From a virus: a DNA stretch of 64,000 nucleotides. Below the pieces are notes generated by a model that saw nothing but the letters and a program-made list of their open reading frames with translations, was not told the origin of the DNA and searched no databases. Location: positions 1-64,000 of the IMG/VR virus record IMGVR_UViG_3300036766_000317; one strand, written 5' to 3'. Position 1 is the first letter of the stretch; each line of letters starts with the position of its first letter. This document shows, piece by piece, positions 25,786 through 38,116 of the stretch. A program made the position numbers and the translations under genes.

Positions 25786-25814
25786 TTGACACACCAATAT
25801 TGATTTGTTATCAT
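25786..25814 (+). promoter_or_regulatory. major early sigma70-type promoter
   Basis: TTGACA-N17-TATCAT with AT-rich upstream region. Confidence 0.8.
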
Positions 25815-26603: not shown

Positions 26604-27059
26604 ATGAGAAAAGCAACACATGGATATCGGATCTATGAAAATCGTGATGGCATCCGCATTGATTGCTTCAGAAGATCAGTTTCCAGGTATGAAGTTGCTA
26701 AATGTCGGATATTCGATCTTTGTCGGGATGTCCGATTGAAGCATCTGGAAAAAAGATACTTCTCCGTATGGGATGGCATCGACGCTGTTTCCAAAGTGAT
26801 CGTTGATAGAGATGGAGCTTATGTTGAAGTTCCTTATCTTCTTCCGGCCCTTACAGCAAGAGAACAAGCGGAGATGGATAAAGACTACATGCTCGCTTCT
26901 CGGAATCGGCTGAAGATGCAGAAGTTCGGTAGAACTCGTGGTGACATCACTTCTTGGATCAAACAAGAAGCTGGTGAACGTGAATTGTGCCGAATCATCG
27001 AGAAAAGTACGTTTGTACCAGGAACAAAGACATTGACAAGAGTGTTTGGGAGATCATAA
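26604..27059 (+). CDS. hypothetical early protein
   Basis: GGAGG RBS before ATG 26604. Confidence 0.7.
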   Translation: MRKATHGYRIYENRDGIRIDCFRRSVSRYEVAKCRIFDLCRDVRLKHLEKRYFSVWDGIDAVSKVIVDRDGAYVEVPYLLPALTAREQAEMDKDYMLASRNRLKMQKFGRTRGDITSWIKQEAGERELCRIIEKSTFVPGTKTLTRVFGRS

Positions 27060-27082
27060 ATTATTAAAAAGGAGAAGAGATT

Positions 27083-27238
27083 ATGGCTACAACAGATCAT
27101 AAAGTGGCTGTAAAAGAAGTTCAACAGCGGGTCTTTGATTTTGATTGGACAAAGATCGAAAATCCATTTAATAAGAACTTCAAACCGTCGGAAGAGTTGA
27201 AAAGGGCTTTAGAGAAGAAATTGGGGATAAAGTTATGA
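27083..27238 (+). CDS. hypothetical 51-aa protein (below ORF-track cutoff)
   Basis: AAGGAG RBS, MATTDHK... Confidence 0.6.
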   Translation: MATTDHKVAVKEVQQRVFDFDWTKIENPFNKNFKPSEELKRALEKKLGIKL

Positions 27239-27334
27239 AGAAAGAAAAGGATAAGGAAGTAGAGCATAGTCGGAAACTTCATAAGGCCATATTGAAGGTT
27301 ATCCGAAAAGCTCAGAAGCGTAGACGGTAGGAAA

Positions 27335-27386
27335 GTCAGAAGGGTGGAAACATTAATGACATACGGAGAGTCCTAAGTCTCTCGTA
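27335..27386 (+). ncRNA. twister ribozyme, permuted (copy 1)
   Basis: GUCA-GAAGG-[GUG GAAA CAU]-UAA-UGAC...GAGAG-UCCUAAGU-CUCUC; AGG/CCU pseudoknot covariation. Confidence 0.8.
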
Positions 27387-27434
27387 ACTACCAATGGTTT
27401 GGTTGTATAAACCCCATAGGAAAGGAGAATTGAA

Positions 27435-27785
27435 ATGTTATTAGTAGCCATTTTTACAGACGAGAATAGCCAAGAGGATCTGGATTTGCTGTTCACAGAC
27501 CTGGAGGAAACATCATGTGAAAAGGTTCTGGTATTTGATGATGGGAATAAGGTCGTCATGAGAGTTCCCGATGAAATTCCCGATCCTGATTTTGTCGGAA
27601 CCATCGAAGAATATTGGATGTTCGTCATGAATGATTCAAGATGTCCATGCTGTCATCCATCAGAAGAATCAGATGTTTCCGCTGTTCATGAAGTAAAAAC
27701 CCTGAAACAATTTCGGGAATACAGCAATCGGCTCAACAATGGAGAAGGTCCTTACGAGGAACTTCTGAAAGATTTGAAAGATTGA
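27435..27785 (+). CDS. acidic hypothetical protein
   Basis: AAGGAG RBS. Confidence 0.7.
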   Translation: MLLVAIFTDENSQEDLDLLFTDLEETSCEKVLVFDDGNKVVMRVPDEIPDPDFVGTIEEYWMFVMNDSRCPCCHPSEESDVSAVHEVKTLKQFREYSNRLNNGEGPYEELLKDLKD

Positions 27786-27836
27786 GGTCTCACCGGCATC
27801 ATCAGAAATGATGGTGTCTAATGGGTTCTTAATTCA
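27782..27836 (+). ncRNA. intergenic structured motif, family 2 (divergent copy A)
   Basis: 10-bp GAAA-capped stem, outer stem, and alternative 3' hairpin UGGGUU/AAUUCA. Confidence 0.5.
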
Positions 27837-28306
27837 AAAGAAAGGAGAAAGAAAATGAAAACCACCCGTACAGTGTATTTTTGTACAATTTGTAATACCC
27901 AACTTGATGTTTGTGGTTGGGGAAATCGTGCAGAATGTCCGGAATGTAACAAGATGGTTAATGTGAAATCAGTGGAAGTTCCGATTCTGAAAAAGGAGAA
28001 CTGAGATGCCAGTAGAAATCAAAATGATAGCCGGTGCTTTTCTTACTATCGGCATAACCGGAGCCGTGATCTGCATAGCTTCTCATGAATTTGTAGGAAG
28101 TTTGTGGTATATAGCTATTACCATCATTGCTGTTTGGGTTATCTTTAAAAAGTAAAGGAGGAAAAATTATGGGTAAAGAAAAAGAAGTATGCTCTTGGTG
28201 CGGAAAAGAATTGCATGACAACGGGGAAACCACATGGTGTGATTGTGGTTGGTGGGATGCTTTGCCCACAAGAGCCGAAGCCGAAGCCGAAACGAAGTAG
28301 ACAATC

Positions 28307-28540
28307 ATGAGGACACTGGAAATAATTCCAGTGTCCGAAGGGGCTGTCTACATCCCCAATTCAGAAGGGAAGGAAAGAGTTATGCAAATGTCCAATTTAG
28401 AATCAATCAAGATTCGTTGCCAAGAACAAGGATTCTTTGCCCGAATACATCGGTTCAAGAAAGGCAAGAAGCGGATGTTTCGTAAGAAAGAACGGATAAA
28501 TCGGCACATAACCAGGAAAGTTCTTCATATTGAACAGTAG
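28307..28540 (+). CDS. hypothetical basic protein
   Basis: ORF in the early operon. Confidence 0.55.
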   Translation: MRTLEIIPVSEGAVYIPNSEGKERVMQMSNLESIKIRCQEQGFFARIHRFKKGKKRMFRKKERINRHITRKVLHIEQ

Positions 28541-28600
28541 TTTGATGGTAGCGGATTAGCCATGAGAAATCATGGCTTTTCCGCTGCAATTAAGCAGCGA
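28540..28600 (+). ncRNA. intergenic structured motif, family 2 (copy B)
   Basis: UAG-CGGA-UU-[AGCCAUGA GAAA UCAUGGCU]-UU-UCCG-CUGC-AAUUAA-GCAGC. Confidence 0.7.
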
Positions 28601-28628
28601 TTAATTCCTTAAAGGAGGAAAGAAGAGT

Positions 28629-29258
28629 ATGAGTAAAAAATCGAAGAAGGTTGCGGAGAAGAAGGCATTGACTCCGATTAAGAAGTTGACGCCGATTGCA
28701 AAGGCGGACGAGTCAATGAAAGCCAAACAGACTGCGGCGATTGCGGAACTCAAGGCAAAATCGAAGGATGCTGCACCCATAGAGGCACCCGTCGTTGCAG
28801 CTCCTGTCCGTCCCGAAATGCCTGCTGACTTCTGTATGGAGAAAGCAGACTGGGACGGCGCTGGTGTGTGCTACGATGCAGGAAGTAATAACTGCGGAAC
28901 GTGTACGAAGGATTTTCCTGAGACCGTTGCCGTGTGCATCGAGCGCATGAAATTCCTCGGTGGTACTGTGAAAACGGCAAAGACGAAGAAAGCTGGAACA
29001 GCGAAGGCTCGGGTTGCCAAGAATGGTGCGAAACCGCAATGCCTCGTCATTGATGATCTGTTGCGAGCATCAACGGCAATGGCAGACATGATCGCCTCGT
29101 TTGCTGCAATCGCATACGCTGGAGATGCAAAAGCGGCAGAAGGTCGTATCAATCGGCACCTGAAATCCATTCGTGTCGGCGAGTACGTCAGATCGGCTGT
29201 AATGAAGGAATTCATTGCTTATCTGGCCGTTGCTGCGCCGGCAGCTCCCGCTGCTTAG
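28629..29258 (+). CDS. Ala/Lys-rich protein with Cys cluster and C-terminal HTH-like domain
   Basis: C...C..C..C...C region; Q...IDD...RINRHLK domain; biased codon usage. Confidence 0.75.
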   Translation: MSKKSKKVAEKKALTPIKKLTPIAKADESMKAKQTAAIAELKAKSKDAAPIEAPVVAAPVRPEMPADFCMEKADWDGAGVCYDAGSNNCGTCTKDFPETVAVCIERMKFLGGTVKTAKTKKAGTAKARVAKNGAKPQCLVIDDLLRASTAMADMIASFAAIAYAGDAKAAEGRINRHLKSIRVGEYVRSAVMKEFIAYLAVAAPAAPAA

Positions 29259-29266
29259 TGAGAAAT

Positions 29267-29330
29267 TGCAGAGGGCACGGGGTGAGAAAGTTTCATCCTG
29301 TGTAATGCACACTACCGTCCCAAGTCGGTG
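29267..29330 (+). ncRNA. twister ribozyme, permuted (copy 2)
   Basis: GCA-GAGGG-[P1 hairpin]-UAA-UGC-AC...ACCG-UCCCAAGU-CGGU. Confidence 0.9.
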
Positions 29331-29354
29331 AGAAAATCTAAGAAAGGAGAGAGT

Positions 29355-29585
29355 ATGAAAAAGTATTTGGTAGAAGTCCGAAAGAAAGGTGAGAAATTCA
29401 GAGAACCTGGTGAACTGATTGAGACAGTAAATACCATTCTCAAAGCGGAAGAAGTAGGAAATTTCAACCCGATCTTTTGCATCTACAAAGACAAACGTGT
29501 CATGGTAAGTTCTAAAGAAGGAGATTTGAGTGATCCTTTTCGTCGGGAAACTTCATATCTGGAAAGTCTTTATATTGAAATCTAA
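29355..29585 (+). CDS. hypothetical protein
   Basis: AAAGGAGAGAGT-ATG start. Confidence 0.7.
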   Translation: MKKYLVEVRKKGEKFREPGELIETVNTILKAEEVGNFNPIFCIYKDKRVMVSSKEGDLSDPFRRETSYLESLYIEI

Positions 29586-29611
29586 CCACCAACCAAGAAA
29601 GGAGTATTGCA

Positions 29612-29779
29612 ATGAACAAACTTCAGAAATTGGTAGCACAATCGGTAATCGTCGTCCTGTACGGAAACCAGCTTCAAGATGAGAAGTTTGACCAAAGACA
29701 GTTACTTCTCGCCAAAGCAATGTACGAGAAAGAAGTGGACAGACAGTTGAGAAAAGGGTTGGATCTTCGCAATATGTAG
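29612..29779 (+). CDS. hypothetical 55-aa protein
   Basis: AAGGAG RBS, MNKLQKLV... Confidence 0.6.
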   Translation: MNKLQKLVAQSVIVVLYGNQLQDEKFDQRQLLLAKAMYEKEVDRQLRKGLDLRNM

Positions 29780-29834
29780 TTTCAGCGTGGGAAGCAGAAA
29801 TCTTCTGCTTCTCGCGGTGTACCTACACCAATAA
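29775..29834 (+). ncRNA. intergenic structured motif, family 2 (copy C)
   Basis: UGUAG...CAG-[14-bp stem]-GUGU-ACCU-ACACC-AAUAA. Confidence 0.65.
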
Positions 29835-29853
29835 CTATGAGAAAGGAGAGAGT

Positions 29854-30222
29854 ATGGGAAATTCAATAAGATTGCACAAAGAGTTCGGTGTAAATCCGAC
29901 AATCCTAAAATGCTTCCTCTGCGGAGAGGATAAAAATGAAATTGCTCTGTTGGGCGCTTCCTATAAAGGACAAGCCCCTATGCACATGTGCATAGACCAA
30001 ACACCTTGTGACAAGTGTAAGGAATACATGAAACAAGGTGTAATCCTAATCTCCGTGAGAGATGGGGAATCAGGAAGTGATCCTTATCGCACAGGGGGTT
30101 GGTGCGTTGTCAAAAGAGAAGCAATGACCAACATCATTGATGATCCAAAATTGCTTGAGAAAGGAGCGATGTTTGTTCCTGATCCAGTATGGAAACAATT
30201 GGGTCTTCCAAAATTTGTATGA
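29854..30222 (+). CDS. conserved-looking phage hypothetical protein with two CxxC motifs
   Basis: GVNPT...CFLCG...PCDKC. Confidence 0.75.
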   Translation: MGNSIRLHKEFGVNPTILKCFLCGEDKNEIALLGASYKGQAPMHMCIDQTPCDKCKEYMKQGVILISVRDGESGSDPYRTGGWCVVKREAMTNIIDDPKLLEKGAMFVPDPVWKQLGLPKFV

Positions 30223-30286
30223 TTAACCTCAGCTCAGACATGCCAAGAAATTGGTATGTCTGCTGGTGAGATCAATCACCAACTAA
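30220..30286 (+). ncRNA. intergenic structured motif, family 2 (copy D)
   Basis: GAAA-capped stem then CUG-GUGA-GAUCAA-UCACC-AACUAA. Confidence 0.65.
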
Positions 30287-30309
30287 CTAAAGGAGGAAAG
30301 GAGAGTATT

Positions 30310-31077
30310 ATGACATCCAGCGTTCCAAAAGAAGAAATCATCTCGAAAATTATGAAGTTGCTGGCTCTGGGCAGTTCTGAAAAGAACGACAATCCTCATG
30401 AGCGGGAAACTGCTTCAAGGATGGCCGCAAAGCTCATGGCTGAGTGGAGCATCGACTTTGCAGAACTCAGAAGTTCCAAGCCATCAGAGGATGCTTTCGT
30501 CACTTATGAGGTGTCAGGTTCGGAAGACCGAAAAGTGGATTTTGAATCCTCCCTTGCTGGCAGTATTGCAAGGGCTTTCGATTGTAAGATCATCAACACC
30601 TGGACAAAATCATTGGATCATCGGTGGGTTATTGCTTTTGTCGGATCAAAGCATGATCTGGAAATCTCCGTCTATTTCTTCAAACATATTCGGAGAACGA
30701 TGTATGCAATGTCCATTAAAAATGTGACCGTCGAAACAGTGAGGCCCAGAAACGGCAGACGAGCTGCCGGTACAGATGTAAATATGGCTCGGAGAAACTA
30801 CTGCTTCGGTATGGTTGAGACGATCAGCACCCGCATGGAAGACCTCTACAAAAAGCGGGAAGAGTTCATCCCGTCAGATTGCCGAGCCCTCGTCATTGTC
30901 AAGAAACAGGGATTGGAAAAATATTTCAATCAGCAATATCCGAACAGAGTTTCTGGTAGAAGAACTTCTTTACGAGGAGATTTAACAGCATTCGGCAAGG
31001 GGCAGGAAGATGGAAAGCGTGTGAACCTCAGTCGGCCCATTAGCAGTAATAATCAACAATCGGCCCAAATTGGATAA
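30310..31077 (+). CDS. DUF2786 domain protein
   Basis: KIMKLLAL...N.HE...A...A.KLM..W.I; C-terminal A...G...G....L. Confidence 0.8.
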   Translation: MTSSVPKEEIISKIMKLLALGSSEKNDNPHERETASRMAAKLMAEWSIDFAELRSSKPSEDAFVTYEVSGSEDRKVDFESSLAGSIARAFDCKIINTWTKSLDHRWVIAFVGSKHDLEISVYFFKHIRRTMYAMSIKNVTVETVRPRNGRRAAGTDVNMARRNYCFGMVETISTRMEDLYKKREEFIPSDCRALVIVKKQGLEKYFNQQYPNRVSGRRTSLRGDLTAFGKGQEDGKRVNLSRPISSNNQQSAQIG

Positions 31078-31092
31078 AAGGAGGAAAGGAGC

Positions 31093-31236
31093 ATGAAGTC
31101 TTTCAACATTTATTTCAGGGACCTCAATGAAGATGCTCAAAAGAGGTTATTGGAACGGTTTGAAACAACTCCCGAAGAGGAAAATTGGGATACAGATGTG
31201 TTTCCAATAGCAATACTCGATCGGGAAGAGGAGTAA
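31093..31236 (+). CDS. hypothetical 47-aa protein
   Basis: AAGGAG RBS. Confidence 0.6.
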   Translation: MKSFNIYFRDLNEDAQKRLLERFETTPEEENWDTDVFPIAILDREEE

Positions 31237-31327
31237 TTCCAGTTCGGAAATGGGAGCAATTCTGAGAGGTTGAGTGTTAAGCATTCGGTAGGAGTTGTTC
31301 CTGTTTCTTCTGGTGGAATTATCCACC
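31233..31327 (+). ncRNA. intergenic structured motif, family 2 (long copy E)
   Basis: UAAUUCCAG-UU-[long stem]-UU-CUG-GUGGA-AUUA-UCCACC. Confidence 0.65.
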
Positions 31328-31353
31328 TTTACTATAAGAAAAGGAGAAGAGAG

Positions 31354-31533
31354 ATGAAGAATGTTACTATGGAAACGAAAGGTCAGAATTTGGTTCTGAC
31401 GGTCGATCTGTCAAAATCCTTTGGAGCCAGTGCTTCCGGGAAGACGATCATCATCGGAACGACTGAAGGCAATCAGCCCGTTGCCGGACATCCCGGTGTT
31501 AGTGTGGGGGTGAACGTCTACAAAAAGAAGTAG
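31354..31533 (+). CDS. small conserved-looking protein (G.S.SGKT..I.TT.GN)
   Basis: AAGGAG RBS before ATG 31354. Confidence 0.75.
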   Translation: MKNVTMETKGQNLVLTVDLSKSFGASASGKTIIIGTTEGNQPVAGHPGVSVGVNVYKKK

Positions 31534-31589
31534 GCAGAGGGCTCCCGCTTCGGCGGGAGTAATGCACAATCTCGGTCCCAAGTCCGAGA
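31534..31589 (+). ncRNA. twister ribozyme, permuted (copy 3)
   Basis: GCA-GAGGG-[CUCCCGC UUCG GCGGGAG]-UAA-UGC-AC-AAU-CUCGG-UCCCAAGU-CCGAG. Confidence 0.92.
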
Positions 31590-31607
31590 AATTAGAAAGG
31601 AGAAAGT

Positions 31608-31811
31608 ATGGGATATGCAATGATGGTAAGCGAATGTGGAGCATGTCACCAGATATTTTGCTACAATCCCCATCTGGTGCCCAGTCTAAACAATGTTCCT
31701 TTTTGTAAACGGTGTGTCGATGCTTCAGCACCTGAAAGAATCAAAAGGGGATTGGTTCCAATCAAATATTCAGAAGAAGCATACAAACCGATGGACGAAT
31801 GTGAACTTTAA
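31608..31811 (+). CDS. small Zn-finger-like protein
   Basis: CGAC and CKRC; RBS. Confidence 0.7.
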   Translation: MGYAMMVSECGACHQIFCYNPHLVPSLNNVPFCKRCVDASAPERIKRGLVPIKYSEEAYKPMDECEL

Positions 31812-31962
31812 ATTTGAAAGGAGAAATCTCTATGAAACCGTTATACTGTACGCAAAACAAAGGCAAGTGCGAAACTTGCTCCCTTACCAACTATGGTCGG
31901 GATTGTCGGAATGTTCCGATAGCTATAAATCGGAAAAAGGCAAAGCCTGAGAAGTAACTTTG

Positions 31963-32018
31963 GCAGAGGGCTCCGTCAGAACTGACGGAGTAATGCACAA
32001 TTCCGGTCCCAAGTCCGG
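31963..32018 (+). ncRNA. twister ribozyme, permuted (copy 4)
   Basis: GCA-GAGGG-[CUCCGUCAG..CUGACGGAG]-UAA-UGC-AC...CCGG-UCCCAAGU-CCGG. Confidence 0.92.
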
Positions 32019-32051
32019 TTTGTAGCTAAAACAAAAGGAGGAAAGAGAGAT

Positions 32052-32963
32052 ATGAGTGAAACAATGGAAGGGTTGGCCTATGAGCTAACATCCGCAGAGC
32101 GGAAAGATGTTCGTGATCGTTATCCGAAGACCTACTTCCCAAGTCCGGTCTTAGAACCGGTGTGGGCAGGTCGTCGGGAACTCCGCAGAATTCCAGACAA
32201 GTTTGCCATTGTCGATCAATGTCGTCCAGGACCCTTAGACGCATCGAATCAGGTATTCGGGATCTGTTCGGATCAGTACAAAATCGTTCCCTTTGAAGAC
32301 GTGGTGCATATGGTAGAAAATTCAGTCGGAAAATTGACTGAATACGGGAAGGTTCAAATCTGCCCGCACACCTATCTTGACGGAGCCAGATTAAACATTG
32401 GCATCAAATTTCCTGAGATGAAACATGAAATCAGGAAACTCGATTCCATTATTCCGAAAGTAGAGGTGTTTTCCTCTTATGACCTATCAACAAAGTTGAT
32501 GGGTCGTTTCGGAGCATTCCAGCTTAAATGCCTGAATGGGGCGGGTATCTGGAAGTCCTTCAAGAGCTTTGCAAAAAGGCATCTCCAGAATCTGTTTCTG
32601 AATGAACTCGGAAACAACATCAGTGAAGGTATGGCTCTTTTCGGGGAACAGGTTGATTCGTGGAAAAAGTGGACTGAACTGAAGTTAGACCAGAAACTCT
32701 ACGATACTGTTTGGGATGAACTCCCTTTCTCTGCTGCGGAACGTATCAAGATCGAAGCATTACCCGAAATCGGTACGAATCTTCAGTTGGGTCAAGCGAT
32801 CAAAGGAAATTCCCTTGATCTTTGGAGCCTTTCATCGGTATTGACACAATTCGCTACCCATGGTGTCAAAAGCGAATTGCGCCGTATCGAACTGGAACCG
32901 GCAATCGCAAGAGTGATGGACCTCACTTTCGACCGAGCCGCTGTTGCGGGACTCGTGCACTAA
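32052..32963 (+). CDS. DUF932/DUF945-family protein
   Basis: GICSDQYKIV, SYDLS, F...CLNG, KRH motifs. Confidence 0.75.
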   Translation: MSETMEGLAYELTSAERKDVRDRYPKTYFPSPVLEPVWAGRRELRRIPDKFAIVDQCRPGPLDASNQVFGICSDQYKIVPFEDVVHMVENSVGKLTEYGKVQICPHTYLDGARLNIGIKFPEMKHEIRKLDSIIPKVEVFSSYDLSTKLMGRFGAFQLKCLNGAGIWKSFKSFAKRHLQNLFLNELGNNISEGMALFGEQVDSWKKWTELKLDQKLYDTVWDELPFSAAERIKIEALPEIGTNLQLGQAIKGNSLDLWSLSSVLTQFATHGVKSELRRIELEPAIARVMDLTFDRAAVAGLVH

Positions 32964-32996
32964 GAAACAACGAACTGAGCCAGAAAGGAGGTACTT

Positions 32997-33233
32997 GTGG
33001 AGAATGCTTCTATAAAAATGTTAACCGTTGATGATTGTAATCTCCGAATGACTGAGCTAACAAAAGAGTTGGAAGAAGCAATTGAGAAATTGGGCCATTG
33101 TGAAGCTGTGGATTTGCTTGCGGCTAAGATTGCTGTTTGGGAAAGAGTCCGGCATCATTTGGTAAGAGGACAAATCATCACAATTGATGGGGAAGAAAAA
33201 CTGAAGATGTGGGAAAACGTTTTATCGGCATAA
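32997..33233 (+). CDS. hypothetical protein
   Basis: AGGAGG RBS, GTG start. Confidence 0.65.
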   Translation: MENASIKMLTVDDCNLRMTELTKELEEAIEKLGHCEAVDLLAAKIAVWERVRHHLVRGQIITIDGEEKLKMWENVLSA

Positions 33234-33235
33234 CC

Positions 33236-33298
33236 GCAGAGGGCGGACAGTCAGAAATTGGCTGTCCGTAATGCACTATCTGAGTCCCAAGTCTCAGA
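33236..33298 (+). ncRNA. twister ribozyme, permuted (copy 5)
   Basis: GCA-GAGGG-[GAAA-capped P1]-UAA-UGC-AC...UCUGAG-UCCCAAGU-CUCAGA. Confidence 0.92.
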
Positions 33299-33321
33299 AA
33301 TTCTATTAAAGGAGGAAAGGG

Positions 33322-33582
33322 ATGGAACCGATTCAAGACAATTTCTTCAAGAGGTTTCGGAAGAAGGTGGAAGGTATCTTCTACCGAACTCGCGGAAATA
33401 AAGGGACTGCCGATCTTGATCCGATCATTCGGATCGGTCGTCACCATGGTGGGGGTGCTCGTCTTTCTGCTATTTCTTTTGGCGAAAAGAAAGCGTCTCC
33501 CACACTCCGAAAGTACCGACAGCACAGAGATCGAGTAAACAAATTGGGAGCGATCTCCCGCAGGAAGAACCGCATTAATTAG
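33322..33582 (+). CDS. Arg/Lys-rich small protein
   Basis: AGGAGG RBS; flanked by twister copies 5 and 6. Confidence 0.7.
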   Translation: MEPIQDNFFKRFRKKVEGIFYRTRGNKGTADLDPIIRIGRHHGGGARLSAISFGEKKASPTLRKYRQHRDRVNKLGAISRRKNRIN

Positions 33583-33640
33583 CAGAGGGCAGGGCCTATT
33601 GAGGCCCTGTAATGCTACATAGCCAGTCCCAAGTCTGGTT
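33580..33640 (+). ncRNA. twister ribozyme, permuted (copy 6)
   Basis: AGCA-GAGGG-[CAGGGCCU..AGGCCCUG]-UAA-UGCU-AC...AGCCAG-UCCCAAGU-CUGGUU. Confidence 0.9.
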
Positions 33641-33666
33641 AAACTAAAGAGAAAGGAGAGAGTATT

Positions 33667-34786
33667 ATGATTACCAAAGAGGATGCTTTGAAGCTGAAAT
33701 ATCGGGATGAACTGCATTTCGGAGAATGTAGAAAGAAGGTCTCTCCCAGAGGCGGTGTAAAAATTACCAATACCATCGTCCGAGTAAACGGGAAAGTCAA
33801 AACGTGGAAACAGAATCTGAGTAGGTTTGAAGTTCCGATCAAACATGGACTATACGATCATAGTTATGTTGATGAGCGGAATGCTCATGATTTCCATCTC
33901 CCGAAAGACTGCCCGTTACTGAAGGAGTAAATTTATGCACCTACTTCATGAGACTACAGTCAAGAATACAGATGGAACTTATGAAATCACCGTCTACATC
34001 GTCGAAGATGGAAAACGAAGAGGTCCTTACACTTATCTGATTCCATCGGATAAAGAAGTCAGGGACTTCCTTGCTCTGTATCAAAAAGGAAAAAGAGATG
34101 GGTCAAGATTTCATGGGAAAGCCCTATCCCTTCTTAACAAACACCGAACCAGGTTAATCAGAAAATAGGAGGAAAGAGAGCATGAAAAAATCGCAGGTGG
34201 CATTGGCTAACATGATTCGTATAGCCAAAGCATACGGTAATACACATACGGTAGAGATGGAACAAGCTGAGAAAGCCCTTGCTGAACTTTTGACTGAAAA
34301 AGGTCATTCAGTAAGTGATTGGAAATGTGTTCAATGTGATCAGGATCAGTGGGGGAAAGATGTAACCCTCTCGTCTGTCGCAGACGGAGGTGTTCCCATC
34401 TGTCCCTATTGCGAGAACGATATGATCTTGGTTGAAGAAAGATGGGTGGAGGTGGAGCCATGAAGAAGGAATACACCGATGTCAAACTCAAGATGACCCG
34501 TCGCAAGCTGATTGCCCTCGACAAAAAGGATATAGGGAAATGGACACATCAGGAATGTGTTGAGGCAGATCGGCTTATCCAAAACACAGCCATTCGGAAT
34601 CTGAGGAAGAAATTATCCTTCTTCCAGGGAGGAACAGGAAGACTTGTTTCCAACTATGCCATACTGATGGCTCAGTTCCACTACGGATCGGCAGAAACAG
34701 ACGACTTCCTTACAGCAATGGGCTGTTATGAGGATTGGATGTTCTCCGAGGAGCAGAACAAGAAACGGCATTCCAAAAAGTCTTAA
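33667..34786 (+). other. four consecutive small hypothetical ORFs (33667-33930, 33935-34168, 34182-34463, ~34460-34786)
   Basis: tight packing with RBSs; 33667 has RVNGKVKTWK....F.VP.KHGLY; 34182 has two CxxC. Confidence 0.7.
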
Positions 34787-34848
34787 AGTCAGCAGATTGA
34801 GCGGGAACCATTTCCCGCTCTTTCTGGTGTTTTTAAGACACCAATAAA
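34780..34848 (+). ncRNA. intergenic structured motif, family 2 (copy F)
   Basis: CUUAAAG-UCAG-CAGA-UU-[GAGCGGGAA..UUCCCGCUC]-UU-UCUG-GUGU-UUUUAAG-ACACC-AAUAA. Confidence 0.75.
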
Positions 34849-34867
34849 CCAAAGGAGGAAAGAAAGT

Positions 34868-35350
34868 ATGAAGAAAACTTGTGATATTTGCAAGACCTAT
34901 TGGAGAGTTCGGAATGAAAAGAAGACCGAACATCCGTGCCATCCCTATCAGAACCCGATGGAAAAAGTCTGTCAGGATTTTGAGATGGAATGGACTCAAG
35001 AAGCCTGTCTAAGAAAATATCCGAGAGTGGTGGCCCATCTGATCTGTGCCAGTCTCGGCTATTTTACACCTCAATCAGCAGCAAATGCCATTTCGTTTTA
35101 CAAACACGGAAAGGCGTTTTTCTGCGAGTGGTATTCCCATATGACCAAATATTCTCGGGATAACTACAAGGGTGACTATTTTGATGAAGTCATCTGTAAA
35201 CGGGTTGGGGAAGAAACTCTGAGATTGGCATTTGTAGGTCGTCATTCCCATCATGGCTATATGACCGAGATTAAGCAAGCCCGACATCTTGTGGCCGCAG
35301 AATTGAAAACTTCGGGAGCTACATCGGGAATGCTTGCATCTTGGTTTTAG
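34868..35350 (+). CDS. hypothetical protein with Cys/His-rich N-terminus
   Basis: AGGAGG RBS. Confidence 0.7.
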   Translation: MKKTCDICKTYWRVRNEKKTEHPCHPYQNPMEKVCQDFEMEWTQEACLRKYPRVVAHLICASLGYFTPQSAANAISFYKHGKAFFCEWYSHMTKYSRDNYKGDYFDEVICKRVGEETLRLAFVGRHSHHGYMTEIKQARHLVAAELKTSGATSGMLASWF

Positions 35351-35412
35351 GCTGAATATAGCGGGTTGGGCAGGAAGCGTCCTGCTCTTCCTGGTGCATT
35401 CAGTACCAAATA
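35351..35412 (+). ncRNA. intergenic structured motif, family 2 (copy G)
   Basis: UGAAU-AUAG-CGGG-UU-[GGGCAGGA..UCCUGCUC]-UU-CCUG-GUGC-AUUCA-GUACC-AAAUAA. Confidence 0.75.
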
Positions 35413-35431
35413 AAGAGAGAAAGGAGAGGGT

Positions 35432-35761
35432 ATGAAAACAGTAGATATTATGGAACGTCTGAAAATTCCAGAATGGAAGGCGAAGGTTGTCAATGTGCTT
35501 ACCAAAGAACACGCCTCATCCCATTCCGATGTTGACGACATCCTCGGAATTATTGAAACCCTTCTTGAAGGGTACGGGGTAGAACCACTCAGGGGAGATC
35601 ATGTTGATAATTACTATATGGATATCAACATCCTCTACATTAATTTGGGGGACACATACACACCCACCGTTCTGTATGATACACTCCTAAACAGATTCTT
35701 TATCTGTTCGTGGGGTGATTATATTGAATCCAAACCGAAACGATTTCCGATGAATGCTTGA
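35432..35761 (+). CDS. hypothetical protein (GYGVE...Y.N.GDTY..T...F....WGD..E)
   Basis: RBS; motif-like pattern. Confidence 0.75.
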   Translation: MKTVDIMERLKIPEWKAKVVNVLTKEHASSHSDVDDILGIIETLLEGYGVEPLRGDHVDNYYMDINILYINLGDTYTPTVLYDTLLNRFFICSWGDYIESKPKRFPMNA

Positions 35762-35818
35762 GAATAGCAGATTGGACGGGAATTTCCCGTCCTTTCTGGT
35801 GTGCTTAAACACCAATAA
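35757..35818 (+). ncRNA. intergenic structured motif, family 2 (copy H)
   Basis: UUGAG-AAUAG-CAGA-UU-[GGACGGGA..UCCCGUCC]-UU-UCUG-GUGU-GCUUAA-ACACC-AAUAA. Confidence 0.75.
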
Positions 35819-35833
35819 AAAGAAAGGAGAGGG

Positions 35834-36420
35834 TATGGACAGAAAAATGTCGAGTGATCTGGATAACTACATTACCGGACATTACGGGGAAGATCAGTTC
35901 AAAAGACCTCGGAAAAAAGATAAAAAGGGGAAGGAATCATTGGTCCATGAATTAGAACACCAGATGAAGAACCTTAACGTCAGTCAGATGTTGGAATTAG
36001 TCAAGAGATCGGGAAATACGGAAAAACGCAGATTCCGATTAAAAGGCCCTACGGGCAGTTTAGATGGAACTATCCATGATGCCGATTTCGGTATCTTGAC
36101 TATTGACGAAGTACCAGAGTTCTTTCTGGCAAAAGATTTCTTGTTGGCCAATGACGTAGTTTGGGAACTCATTAACTAAACAGAGAAAGGAGATTAGCAT
36201 GGAAGAGCCAATCAAAATTCCAGAGAAGGACAAATTTGTCCGAAATTGTCCGGGTCCCAGATATAAAGTAATTTCAGGTCCTGGAGGGCATTACGTCTAT
36301 GATTACAAGTCTCTGGACGTGGTGAGGAAAGACGGGAAATTCTTTATGGGCAAAGAACCGTCGGAAGCCAGAGAGTTCCTTCAATCTCTAAATGAAGAAG
36401 CTCCCCTTATAGAAAGGTAA
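35834..36420 (+). other. two small hypothetical ORFs (35834-36179, 36199-36420)
   Basis: AAGGAG RBSs. Confidence 0.65.
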
Positions 36421-36569
36421 GGATGGTAATCTATGAAATGTGACCACTGCAATATCGAATTGAAAAAACGCAAGACCCCTCCAAGAACCGCGACAATTGA
36501 CGGGGGAAAGTATTATGACTATTTTCAATGCCCAAAATGCAAAACGAATTATGCCAAAGCCAAAAAGTA

Positions 36570-36623
36570 GCAGAGGACGCTGCTTCGGCAGCGTAATGCA
36601 CAAATCCAGTCCCAAGTCTGGAT
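36570..36623 (+). ncRNA. twister ribozyme, permuted (copy 7)
   Basis: GCA-GAGGA-[CGCUGC UUCG GCAGCG]-UAA-UGC-AC...AUCCAG-UCCCAAGU-CUGGAU. Confidence 0.88.
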
Positions 36624-36648
36624 AAAATAAGAAAAGGAGGAAAGAGCT

Positions 36649-37104
36649 ATGCCAAAAAACGTAAGAAATTTCTGGATCGAAGCAGATGTCGATGGGGGAA
36701 CTCCCATCGGAGCAGGCCCTAAATCCAAAGATGGAGGATTTTCTCTGTCCATCTTCATGCGAGACAAAGGATTCGTCAAGAGGGTCGCCAACATCTCAGG
36801 AGTCGGGGGAAGTGAATTGAAATTATCAATTCATACGGAAGATGGTAAATATTTACAGTATACTACACAAAGGTAACAGATGAAAAAGGAGGAAAGAGCT
36901 ATGCCAATCGAAACAGATTTCACCAATTTGCTCAAGCATATCGATGATGCTTCTGATGGATTGGAACAAAAGGTCGAATCGACGGAAGAGGAGTTGGACA
37001 CTTTGAATACTCTCCTTACGAGAAAAAAAGAGCTTGTCGATAAAATCAACTCCCTCGCCGAAGAGATTGAGGACTTCCTCAACGACGCCAATTCCCTCAT
37101 CTGA
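36649..37104 (+). other. two small ORFs (36649-36876; acidic coiled-coil 36901-37104) with identical 24-nt RBS/start blocks
   Basis: AAAAGGAGGAAAGAGCTATGCCAA precedes both. Confidence 0.7.
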
Positions 37105-37106
37105 AT

Positions 37107-37161
37107 GCAGAGGACAGCCTCAACAGAGGCTGTAATGGACATCTCGGTTCCAAGTCCGAGA
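37107..37161 (+). ncRNA. twister ribozyme, permuted (copy 8)
   Basis: GCA-GAGGA-[CAGCCUC..GAGGCUG]-UAA-UGG-AC..CUCGG-UUCCAAGU-CCGAG; GGA/UCC covariation, one P2 mismatch. Confidence 0.8.
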
Positions 37162-37186
37162 AATAAATTAAAGGAGGGAAGAGAGT

Positions 37187-37892
37187 ATGCACAAAAGACC
37201 CACACCAAATCAAGAGAGGTCTTTCCGTCACTTCTTCGGAAAATCTACCAGTGTTTACTGGAATCCTTTATTTGGATTTGATATCGTTCAATTTGATGCC
37301 GACATGCAGTCCGAACAAGGATACGTTGAGGATGGAAAAACAAGCCTTCGGGAATTTCTCGTCCAGAAATTCGGTCAAGAGGCTTCGGATCTAGTAAACT
37401 CTTTAATAGGAGGTGTTTAATGGAAAAGAAAACAGTTGTGATTTTCCGAAAGTTCCCGGAGGGGGATATTATAGCCATGTTCCCCGAAATTCAGGCGGAT
37501 CAAAATCGTTGTGATTGTCTGAGCTATCAGCATATCGGCCAGCATGGTCCTGCTTCATATTTTCTGGTAGACCGAACGAAATTAGCTATTGCTGCTGAAT
37601 ATGCAGAGCTGAAAGCGGAGCTTGAATCAATCGGCTATGATCTGATAATCCGAAAACGGATCAACAAGCATTGGTATGAGGTAAAGGAGGGGTAAATATG
37701 CGTTCATGGAGGTGGTATATACACTTTCCACAAGATGCGTATGCTTTAGGACCAATTCATTTTGAAAAGAGGGATTACACAAAGCCTCCTAATGAAAGGG
37801 ATGTCCGACAGTATGCGAGAGAGTGGGAGGGTGTGAAACGATTGCCGACGGGGTTTTCTTGTTGGTCTGCTGAGTATTGGTCTGCTGAGTAA
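37187..37892 (+). other. three small hypothetical ORFs (37187-37420, 37420-37695, 37698-37892)
   Basis: RBSs and tight coupling; 37420 has VIFRKF...A.FP...Y.H.GQH...EY..L..EL..IGY. Confidence 0.7.
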
Positions 37893-38087
37893 AGGAGGAA
37901 GTATGAAACTGACTGAGTTTGAATGGCATCTGAAAAAGATTGCCGAATCAACCTTGAAAATGCCTGATACTATGGTAAAGATCATAGGCGGGATGACAAA
38001 AGATGAGGCTAAAGAAATTCTGGGTAAATTAGGCAAAAAAGAATTGGAAGAGGATGTAGAAAAGATATAATCCACCTAAAATAGTGC

Positions 38088-38116
38088 TTGACATATCAAT
38101 ATGTTTTTGATATACT
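38088..38116 (+). promoter_or_regulatory. sigma70-type promoter for regulatory/replication genes
   Basis: TTGACA-N17-TATACT. Confidence 0.8.

Follow-up and report, generated by a model that had tools for sequence, protein, structure and literature searches.

The window analysed here, the first 64 kb of the 91.8 kb genome of an uncultured sediment phage in IMG/VR (record IMGVR_UViG_3300036766_000317, rated complete by CheckV), contains an operon of tiny early genes, and seven of the junctions between these genes carry copies of an RNA element of about 65 bases, hereafter the module, which lies outside every Rfam 15 family. The bases of the module can be arranged in two alternative folds, a long hairpin termed the rod and a short downstream hairpin termed X, and each of the two is conserved. 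The most plausible, if still tentative, reading of this arrangement is that of a cis-acting inter-cistronic processing signal for a double-strand-specific nuclease such as the host RNase III, the 3′ product of which refolds into X.

The module reads, from the 5′ end, a segment a of 5–7 nucleotides (nt), two free bases, Y-A-G-C, an upper stem, G-G-U-G-N, a segment a′ and N′-C-A-C-C. Two subtypes differ in the upper stem, which is C-RGR-UU-(8–9 bp)-UU-YCY-G in the F-type and C-U-(11–12 bp)-N-U-G in the D-type. In the rod, a pairs with a′, followed by the Y:G and A:U pairs, a G·G mismatch, a C:G pair and the upper hairpin, which is variable in sequence but fixed in length, whereas X is formed by GGUGN and N′CACC. 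Of the unpaired bases, only the two mismatch G are conserved in both subtypes, and the spacers and the apical loop vary. The UU/UU loop described in the initial annotation is present in the F-type and absent from the D-type, and the AAUAA tail resembles the A/U-rich leader found upstream of ribosome-binding sites elsewhere in the operon.

Both folds are well supported by covariation in an alignment (A7) of 33 distinct copies, drawn from the window and from related contigs. Pairing in the rod reaches 94.5%, and all 19 of its pairs show double changes; none of 500 shuffles equals this, and slid controls reach 38–51% pairing. In hairpin X pairing amounts to 97.4%, and four of its five pairs show double changes, although many of the copies are paralogues or orthologues, so that the covarying-cell counts overstate the number of independent events. 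Hairpin X and the pairs 11:64 and 12:63 lie outside the structure of the covariance model, and the alignment was therefore not fitted to them. The two pairings proposed initially, between a and a′ and within the GGUGY/RYACC hairpin, are thus real and covarying. The same does not apply to YAG and GGU as a fixed motif. Covariation between the A of YAG and the U of GGU is complete, with A..U in 29 copies of the alignment, U..A in three and neither base ever unpaired. More U..A cases are found among weaker matches in the genomes G001 and G002, and the variant is present in at least three genome lineages. The partner in X switches along, giving GGAGC/GCUCC, GGAAC/GUUCC and GGAGU/ACUCC. Column 63 of the alignment, either U or A, is hence partnered by column 12 in the rod and by column 78 in X, and the three columns vary in concert.

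The rod pairs 11:64, 12:63 and 14:61 use the same bases as X. The a:a′ helix and X alone could be sterically compatible, but the complete rod and X are mutually exclusive, because one base cannot form two Watson–Crick pairs simultaneously. Of the two options left in the initial annotation, a pseudoknot or a pair of alternative folds, the latter is favoured, since column 63 covaries in both helices, and the conservation of each fold argues against a simultaneous pseudoknot. A base triple within a pseudoknot is also unlikely, as the change from A:U to U:A fits a Watson–Crick pair and the two versions would probably give non-equivalent triples. The pairs of the alignment comprise 66 G-U pairs against 662 Watson–Crick pairs, and model scores on the reverse strand are far lower, which together point to selection on the plus-strand RNA.

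The energetics and the geometry of the module are likewise consistent with an intact RNA that prefers the rod. The rod is the minimum free energy (MFE) fold in 26 of the 33 copies, with the X conformer usually 1–12 kcal/mol above it, and a 3′ fragment whose first base is the leading G of GGUG adopts X in 30 of the 33 (−6 to −9.7 kcal/mol). The median rod length is 22.5 bp (range 17–28, arms of 26–27 nt), which is the two-turn double-stranded length (around 20 bp or more) expected of T7-type RNase III signals. Counted to the apical loop, the C:G pair beside the mismatch is 14–15 nt away along the 5′ strand in 28 of 32 copies and along the 3′ strand in 31 of the 32, a distance that holds across both subtypes and unrelated stem sequences. 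The mismatch, some 12 nt from the base of the rod, is thereby placed near the centre of the two-turn helix. Finally, as in RNase III signals of this type, every copy is inter-cistronic, located in the sense-strand interval between a stop codon and the Shine-Dalgarno sequence that follows, and every plus-strand match of the model falls at a gene junction, as had been noted at the outset.

The proposed processing pathway would begin with the intact transcript, in which a, the strand that bears the upstream stop codon, would be paired with a′ in a rod of about 22–23 bp. We infer that a double-strand-specific endoribonuclease, most plausibly the host RNase III, would cut close to the mismatch at the centre of the rod, chiefly in the 3′ strand. 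The hairpin would then stay on the upstream mRNA as a 3′ cap, whereas the freed GGUGN-a′ would pair with the downstream N′CACC and so give the next cistron X at its new 5′ end. X ends 10–17 nt ahead of the next Shine-Dalgarno sequence. The initial annotation had offered either a new self-cleaving RNA or an RNase III-type site with a refolding 3′ product; the second option fits the anatomy in its two-turn helix, central mismatch, preference for the rod and conversion of the 3′ fragment into X, while the first draws only on the twister context discussed below. A phage-encoded nuclease was considered and rejected. Neither an RNase III gene or domain nor a nuclease-like gene that tracks the module was found in the phage, and the genes present in motif-positive genomes yet missing from the motif-negative genomes G003 and G005 are only structural or glycan-cluster genes; this points to either a host enzyme or self-cleavage. 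RNase P, suggested by the combination of the rod and a 3′ ACCA, was also rejected, as cleavage on the 5′ side of the rod would cost the upstream gene its stop codon and the CCA is not universal.

Several observations weigh against a processing signal of this kind. First, two copies in G001 (L159:6659–6718 and L159:7453–7515) retain the rod with the U:A variant and have no X downstream, so X appears dispensable in some contexts. Next, a G·G mismatch is not known to be a determinant of RNase III cleavage. A cut through both strands would moreover leave the upstream mRNA without its hairpin and take away part of X, and the model thus needs cleavage of one strand only. The expanded copy E of the window (Table 1) violates the length rule. 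Finally, the fixed position of the stop codon within the rod could indicate a mechanism driven by the ribosome.

The register of the stop codon is indeed striking. In 18 of 31 copies the upstream stop occupies alignment columns 5–7 of segment a, 6 nt before the C of YAGC, and in the other 13 it falls within −7 to +2 of that register. Because segment a contains the upstream stop, a′ is in effect an anti-stop-codon sequence, and it covaries with the identity of the stop as UAA, UGA or UAG (pairs 5-70, 6-69 and 7-68). The in-frame UAG of the module itself (Y = U) never serves as the stop, even though it would be the most compact option. Many copies have tandem in-frame stops of the form UAA/UGA-NNN-UAG, for example at 35759–35767, with the UAG of YAG one codon past the true stop. 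A control set of 53 Twister-P5 sites (from the window and L120, L122, L123, L125, L126 and L127) gave a gap of 0 to the stop in 17 cases and of −2 in 14, so compaction is general in these phages, the twisters being likewise abutted or overlapped by stops. At these sites the stop precedes or overlaps the start of the ribozyme, either as UAA directly followed by UGCAGAGGG or as U followed by AGCAGAGGG with AG shared, and with the stop at the first bases of the twister a terminating ribosome would sit on the 5′ strand of the ribozyme.

Such a register would be expected if the module were an uncleaved, translation-coupled conformational switch or insulator, a reading that we regard as rather unlikely but as the most serious competitor. 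A ribosome terminating in segment a would cover the next 9–12 nt or so and melt a:a′, the YA:UG pairs and the C:G pair, upon which the 3′ strand would convert to X, and the two states might set decay, ribosome hand-over or insulation between the mini-genes. Beyond the register and the covariation of a′ with the stop, this is supported by the module's unused UAG, given that the stops at twisters overlap the ribozyme as far as possible, and by the stability of X once the 5′ strand is occupied. However, no output of such a switch is visible, the Shine-Dalgarno sequence being unpaired in the MFE fold of most window copies (the X state was not separately analysed), and the register may partly reflect the genome compaction seen also at the twisters. 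Stimulation of stop-codon read-through or recoding is ruled out, as 16 of the 33 copies have an in-frame stop within the module, often as UAA-NNN-UAG. In addition, the slot is otherwise held by a self-cleaving ribozyme, an argument for cutting as the activity needed there.

The exchange of the module with this ribozyme is seen most clearly around the DUF2786 gene, which is flanked by twisters in L120, L122, L127, L140 and L144 and by the module in the window (G000), L142, L145, L146, L157 and L161. In contigs where the DUF2786 cassette is 82–85% identical to the window at the DNA level, homology begins at position 30287, one base past copy D, and upstream of this breakpoint these contigs carry a different gene and a twister. 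The block consisting of the open reading frame (ORF) at 29854–30222 and copy D is found elsewhere in L144 (4342–4798). The breakpoint and the second location of the block indicate that the module is the 3′-terminal part of the upstream cassette, and cassettes with a module or a twister at their end are shuffled between close relatives. Corresponding breakpoints were located at L140:624, L141:1114 and L164:2059, the shuffled unit comprising the ribosome-binding site, the ORF and the 3′ element, and the junction elements may serve as recombination boundaries. Twister-P5 is abundant in the relatives, with 61 and 62 matches in two sets of loci and no other Rfam ribozyme class. Dense arrays occur in L148 (Ga0209507_1000149), L127, L120, L122 and others, with up to 27 twisters per 20 kb, after almost every early mini-gene.

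This exchange is the best argument for a further possibility, namely self-cleavage by the module, as a ribozyme of a new class, at a site between the variable hairpin and X. The module would then have replaced Twister-P5 in the same slot, strand and cassette position, and the exchange of the rod for X would represent the states before and after cleavage, acting in product release or as an on/off switch. Its layout resembles that of Twister-P5, with a 5′ strand, a variable hairpin and a 3′ hairpin that has a loop complementary to the 5′ strand, and the lack of a phage nuclease that tracks the module also fits self-cleavage. Nevertheless, the possibility is judged improbable. Invariant core bases and tertiary contacts are far more numerous in known small ribozymes than here: in the module only the two mismatch G are conserved and unpaired in both subtypes, the UU/UU loop is missing from the D-type, the spacers and the apical loop are free to vary and the A of YAG is a plain Watson–Crick partner. 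No Rfam ribozyme model matches the module at E ≤ 10. Twister sister, pistol and hatchet were discovered by the same kind of gene association (PMC6765202), but other motifs from the gene context of twister and hammerhead showed no cleavage in experiments and are still unexplained (PMC6765202).

Considerably less probable is an operator at which a phage or host RNA-binding protein would recognise the groove widened by the G·G mismatch, with a role in translational repression, antitermination or packaging. A purine–purine mismatch held between conserved pairs at a ruler-like distance from the loop would suit such a site, and the operon encodes many tiny proteins without known function. Still, no gene co-occurs with the module across motif-positive and motif-negative genomes, and an operator leaves both X and the exchange with a ribozyme unexplained. 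An intrinsic terminator, or a DNA-level repeat such as a recombination site or mobile palindromic element without a function of its RNA fold, is very improbable: a scan for terminators picks out the variable hairpins of copies F and H, and cassette breakpoints coincide with element ends, but only two of the seven variable hairpins are picked out in this way, together with X of copy E, the U stretch is paired in S1 (Table 1) and absent from the D-type, and the G-U pairs, the strand asymmetry and the compensatory changes show selection on the plus-strand RNA.

The assignment of the module to no described family follows from comparison with Rfam 15, so that its novelty is judged against Rfam families and not against motifs absent from Rfam. 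A cmscan of positions 27000–38000 at E ≤ 10 returned Twister-P5 and scattered chance hits, none of them on the seven confirmed copies, although a 22-bit chance match to freshwater-2 touches the unrelated hairpin at 27782. The best match of the Pistol model in the genome reaches 11.3 bits and lies inside an ORF. Hammerhead, pistol, hatchet, twister-sister, HDV-like and RAGATH models are among the Rfam families without a match to the motif, and no described equivalent was found in the literature searched.

The distribution of the module was followed with two covariance models, R1 built from four copies and R2 from 23 matches. Elsewhere in the 91.8 kb genome they yield nothing beyond reverse-strand echoes of the true copies, with lower scores, and a single chance-level match of 16.5 bits. 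Single-protein searches of IMG/VR with the DUF2786 protein and the DNA polymerase returned no relatives, and a scan of IMG/VR with the pattern CTGGTGYN{5,8}RYACCAATAA gave 118 loci, of which the 80 tested with the model were all attributable to chance, including one weak match inside an ORF (L053). Relatives were instead retrieved by alignment of DUF2786 homologues, which yielded 15 viral and 36 metagenome loci. Among these loci the module is found in a subset of related contigs, always on the sense strand and between genes. Matches to R2 occur in the closest relatives of the window (L140–L146, L149 and L164), in L157, in G001 (at least four copies) and in G002 (two to five), whereas the complete genomes G003 and G005 and five partial ones have none.

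Table 1. Copies of the module and other features of the early region of the window.
Feature	Position	Strand	Remarks
Copy F, reference, F-type	34780–34848	+	R1 76.5 bits, R2 72.5 bits; rod is the MFE fold
Copy F, segment a	34782–34788	+	includes stop TAA of the upstream ORF, 34784–34786
Copy F, YAGC	34790–34793	+	sequence reading
Copy F, S1 5′ strand CAGA	34793–34796	+	followed by UU
Copy F, variable hairpin	34799–34820	+	followed by UU
Copy F, S1 3′ strand UCUG	34823–34826	+	sequence reading
Copy F, X 5′ strand GGUGU	34826–34830	+	sequence reading
Copy F, a′	34831–34837	+	sequence reading
Copy F, X 3′ strand ACACC	34838–34842	+	sequence reading
Copy H, F-type	35755–35819	+	83.7 and 72.5 bits; stop TGA 35759–35761 within segment a
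Copy G, F-type	35349–35413	+	76.6 and 71.8 bits; stop TAG 35348–35350 abuts segment a
Copy B, F-type	28539–28604	+	77.6 and 65.6 bits; X is GCUGC/GCAGC
Copy C	29774–29835	+	47.4 bits; short X loop ACCU
Copy D, D-type	30220–30286	+	33 bits; YAG-C-U-(12 bp hairpin)-C-U-G-GUG
Copy E, expanded variant with much longer arms	31233–31335	+	R2 matches the 3′ part only, 31267–31333, 17.1 bits
Hairpin, not a member	27782–27845	+	no R1 or R2 match even with filters off
Twister-P5 ribozymes, seven, at other junctions of the operon	29267–29329, 31533–31587, 31962–32018, 33235–33296, 33581–33638, 36569–36621, 37106–37159	+	Rfam RF02684
Sigma-70-like promoter, best upstream of the array	25786–25814	+	TTGACA-17-TATCAT with upstream TG; consensus scan only

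Eight copies had initially been listed in the window. Six of these are strong matches (33–84 bits), the one at 31233 is the expanded variant, and the one at 27782 does not belong to the family. The last is a different rod-like hairpin, the outer helix of which pairs the upstream stop region (TGA 27783–27785) with the downstream strand UUCUUAAUU. The copies proper also show some individual features. Copy B has a G-C pair in place of the G·G mismatch, and in copy C the a:a′ helix, UGUAG/CUACA, shares bases with the 3′ strand of X. Copy D is located directly upstream of the DUF2786/DUF7168 gene and has orthologues at L142:1719 and L144:4709. In copy E, a is UAAUU, including the stop TAA at 31234–31236, and X is GGUGGA/UCCACC; its orthologues at L142:2764 and L149:662 do match the model.

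The array in which these elements reside consists of about 35 tiny genes on the plus strand between approximately 25.8 and 38 kb, each preceded by a strong Shine-Dalgarno sequence. The annotated proteins are DUF2786/DUF7168, DUF932 and PHROGs without known function, the kind found around bacterial ribozymes, and the seven twisters at the remaining junctions score 41.7–64.4 bits against a gathering score of 37.6. Other plus-strand promoter-like sites are found at 38088 (11 of 12 consensus positions) and at 27033, 28298 and 38044 (10 of 12), and in total such sites are no more frequent than in shuffles. As the strong plus-strand sigma-70-like sites are only those at 25786 and 38088, the sequence suggests that the array is transcribed as one long early transcript. 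Beyond the window, the minus strand has two giant ORFs (1883 and 1767 amino acids) at genome positions 74564–80215 and 81605–86908; the product of the former has a counterpart only in G002, with 27% identity. No cultured relatives of the phage were found in the phage collection searched. A weak hint at the host comes from L194 (JBAZER010000112.1), a 2.8 kb contig encoding a DUF2786 protein with 65% identity, which is binned with a Candidatus Omnitrophota metagenome-assembled genome.

The occurrence of a twister or a structurally unrelated module at the same cassette boundary amounts to a natural substitution experiment. It bears on why self-cleaving ribozymes are situated between small bacterial and phage genes, which is an open question (PMC6765202). 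If a host nuclease cuts the module, then what the boundary needs is cleavage that leaves hairpin-capped ends, and not ribozyme chemistry as such; if the module cuts itself, it represents a new ribozyme class; and if it is not cut at all, the function that it has in common with the twister must be something else. A switch flipped by the terminating ribosome would, if true, be the first natural RNA switch of that kind. The design is also small and explicit, with two exclusive folds, a stop codon placed in a helix and a fixed hairpin length, and may serve in the engineering of operons.

Among known elements, Twister-P5 (RF02684) is the natural point of reference, since it occupies the same 3′ slot of the cassette, starts likewise at the stop codon and has the same order of elements. 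Cleavage of Twister-P5 at its known site would leave the 5′ product with hairpin P1 and the 3′ product with P4 close to its 5′ end, which is the layout proposed for the products of the module. In contrast, the module gives no covariance match to Twister-P5 and the twister core is not visible in it, and its pairing between strand and loop competes with X rather than coexisting with it. Pistol (RF02679) similarly has a hairpin of 5 bp with a loop of 6–7 nt that can pair fully with a distant strand, and a G-U after the hairpin stem. However, the elements of the module are permuted with respect to pistol and P2 is lacking, and a permuted pistol is rejected on account of the missing model match, of the GU, which is not conserved (GGA in three of the 33 copies and in more of the weaker matches), and of the covariation of the rod pairing.

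Transcribed palindromic repeats, such as the Correia elements, are cleaved by RNase III in bacterial operons. Like the module, these recur as hairpins between cistrons; such hairpins can be processed and alter the stability of the flanking message, but Correia-type repeats are mobile DNA with terminal inverted repeats, whereas the helices of the module are kept by compensatory changes and are tied to the stop codon of a cassette. The RAGATH motifs are comparable in the logic of their discovery and in gene neighbourhood (DUF2786, DUF932 and small phage genes), although no Rfam RAGATH family matches the module at E ≤ 10. Some motifs of the RAGATH type did not self-cleave when tested (PMC6765202). 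The module may belong with these unexplained motifs near the genes associated with twister and hammerhead.

By analogy, the closest functional counterpart would be the RNase III signals of the T7 early transcript, which share with the module the repeated hairpins of about two turns between early cistrons and an interruption in the middle of the stem. No sequence relation exists between the two, and unlike the T7 signals the module has a single G·G mismatch, a stop codon in its lower stem and a second fold, X. In T7 early mRNA, RNase III reportedly cuts the inter-cistronic hairpins R0.3, R0.5, R1, R1.1 and R1.3, which contain internal loops, and leaves 3′ hairpins on the upstream messages, which is the product proposed here for the module.

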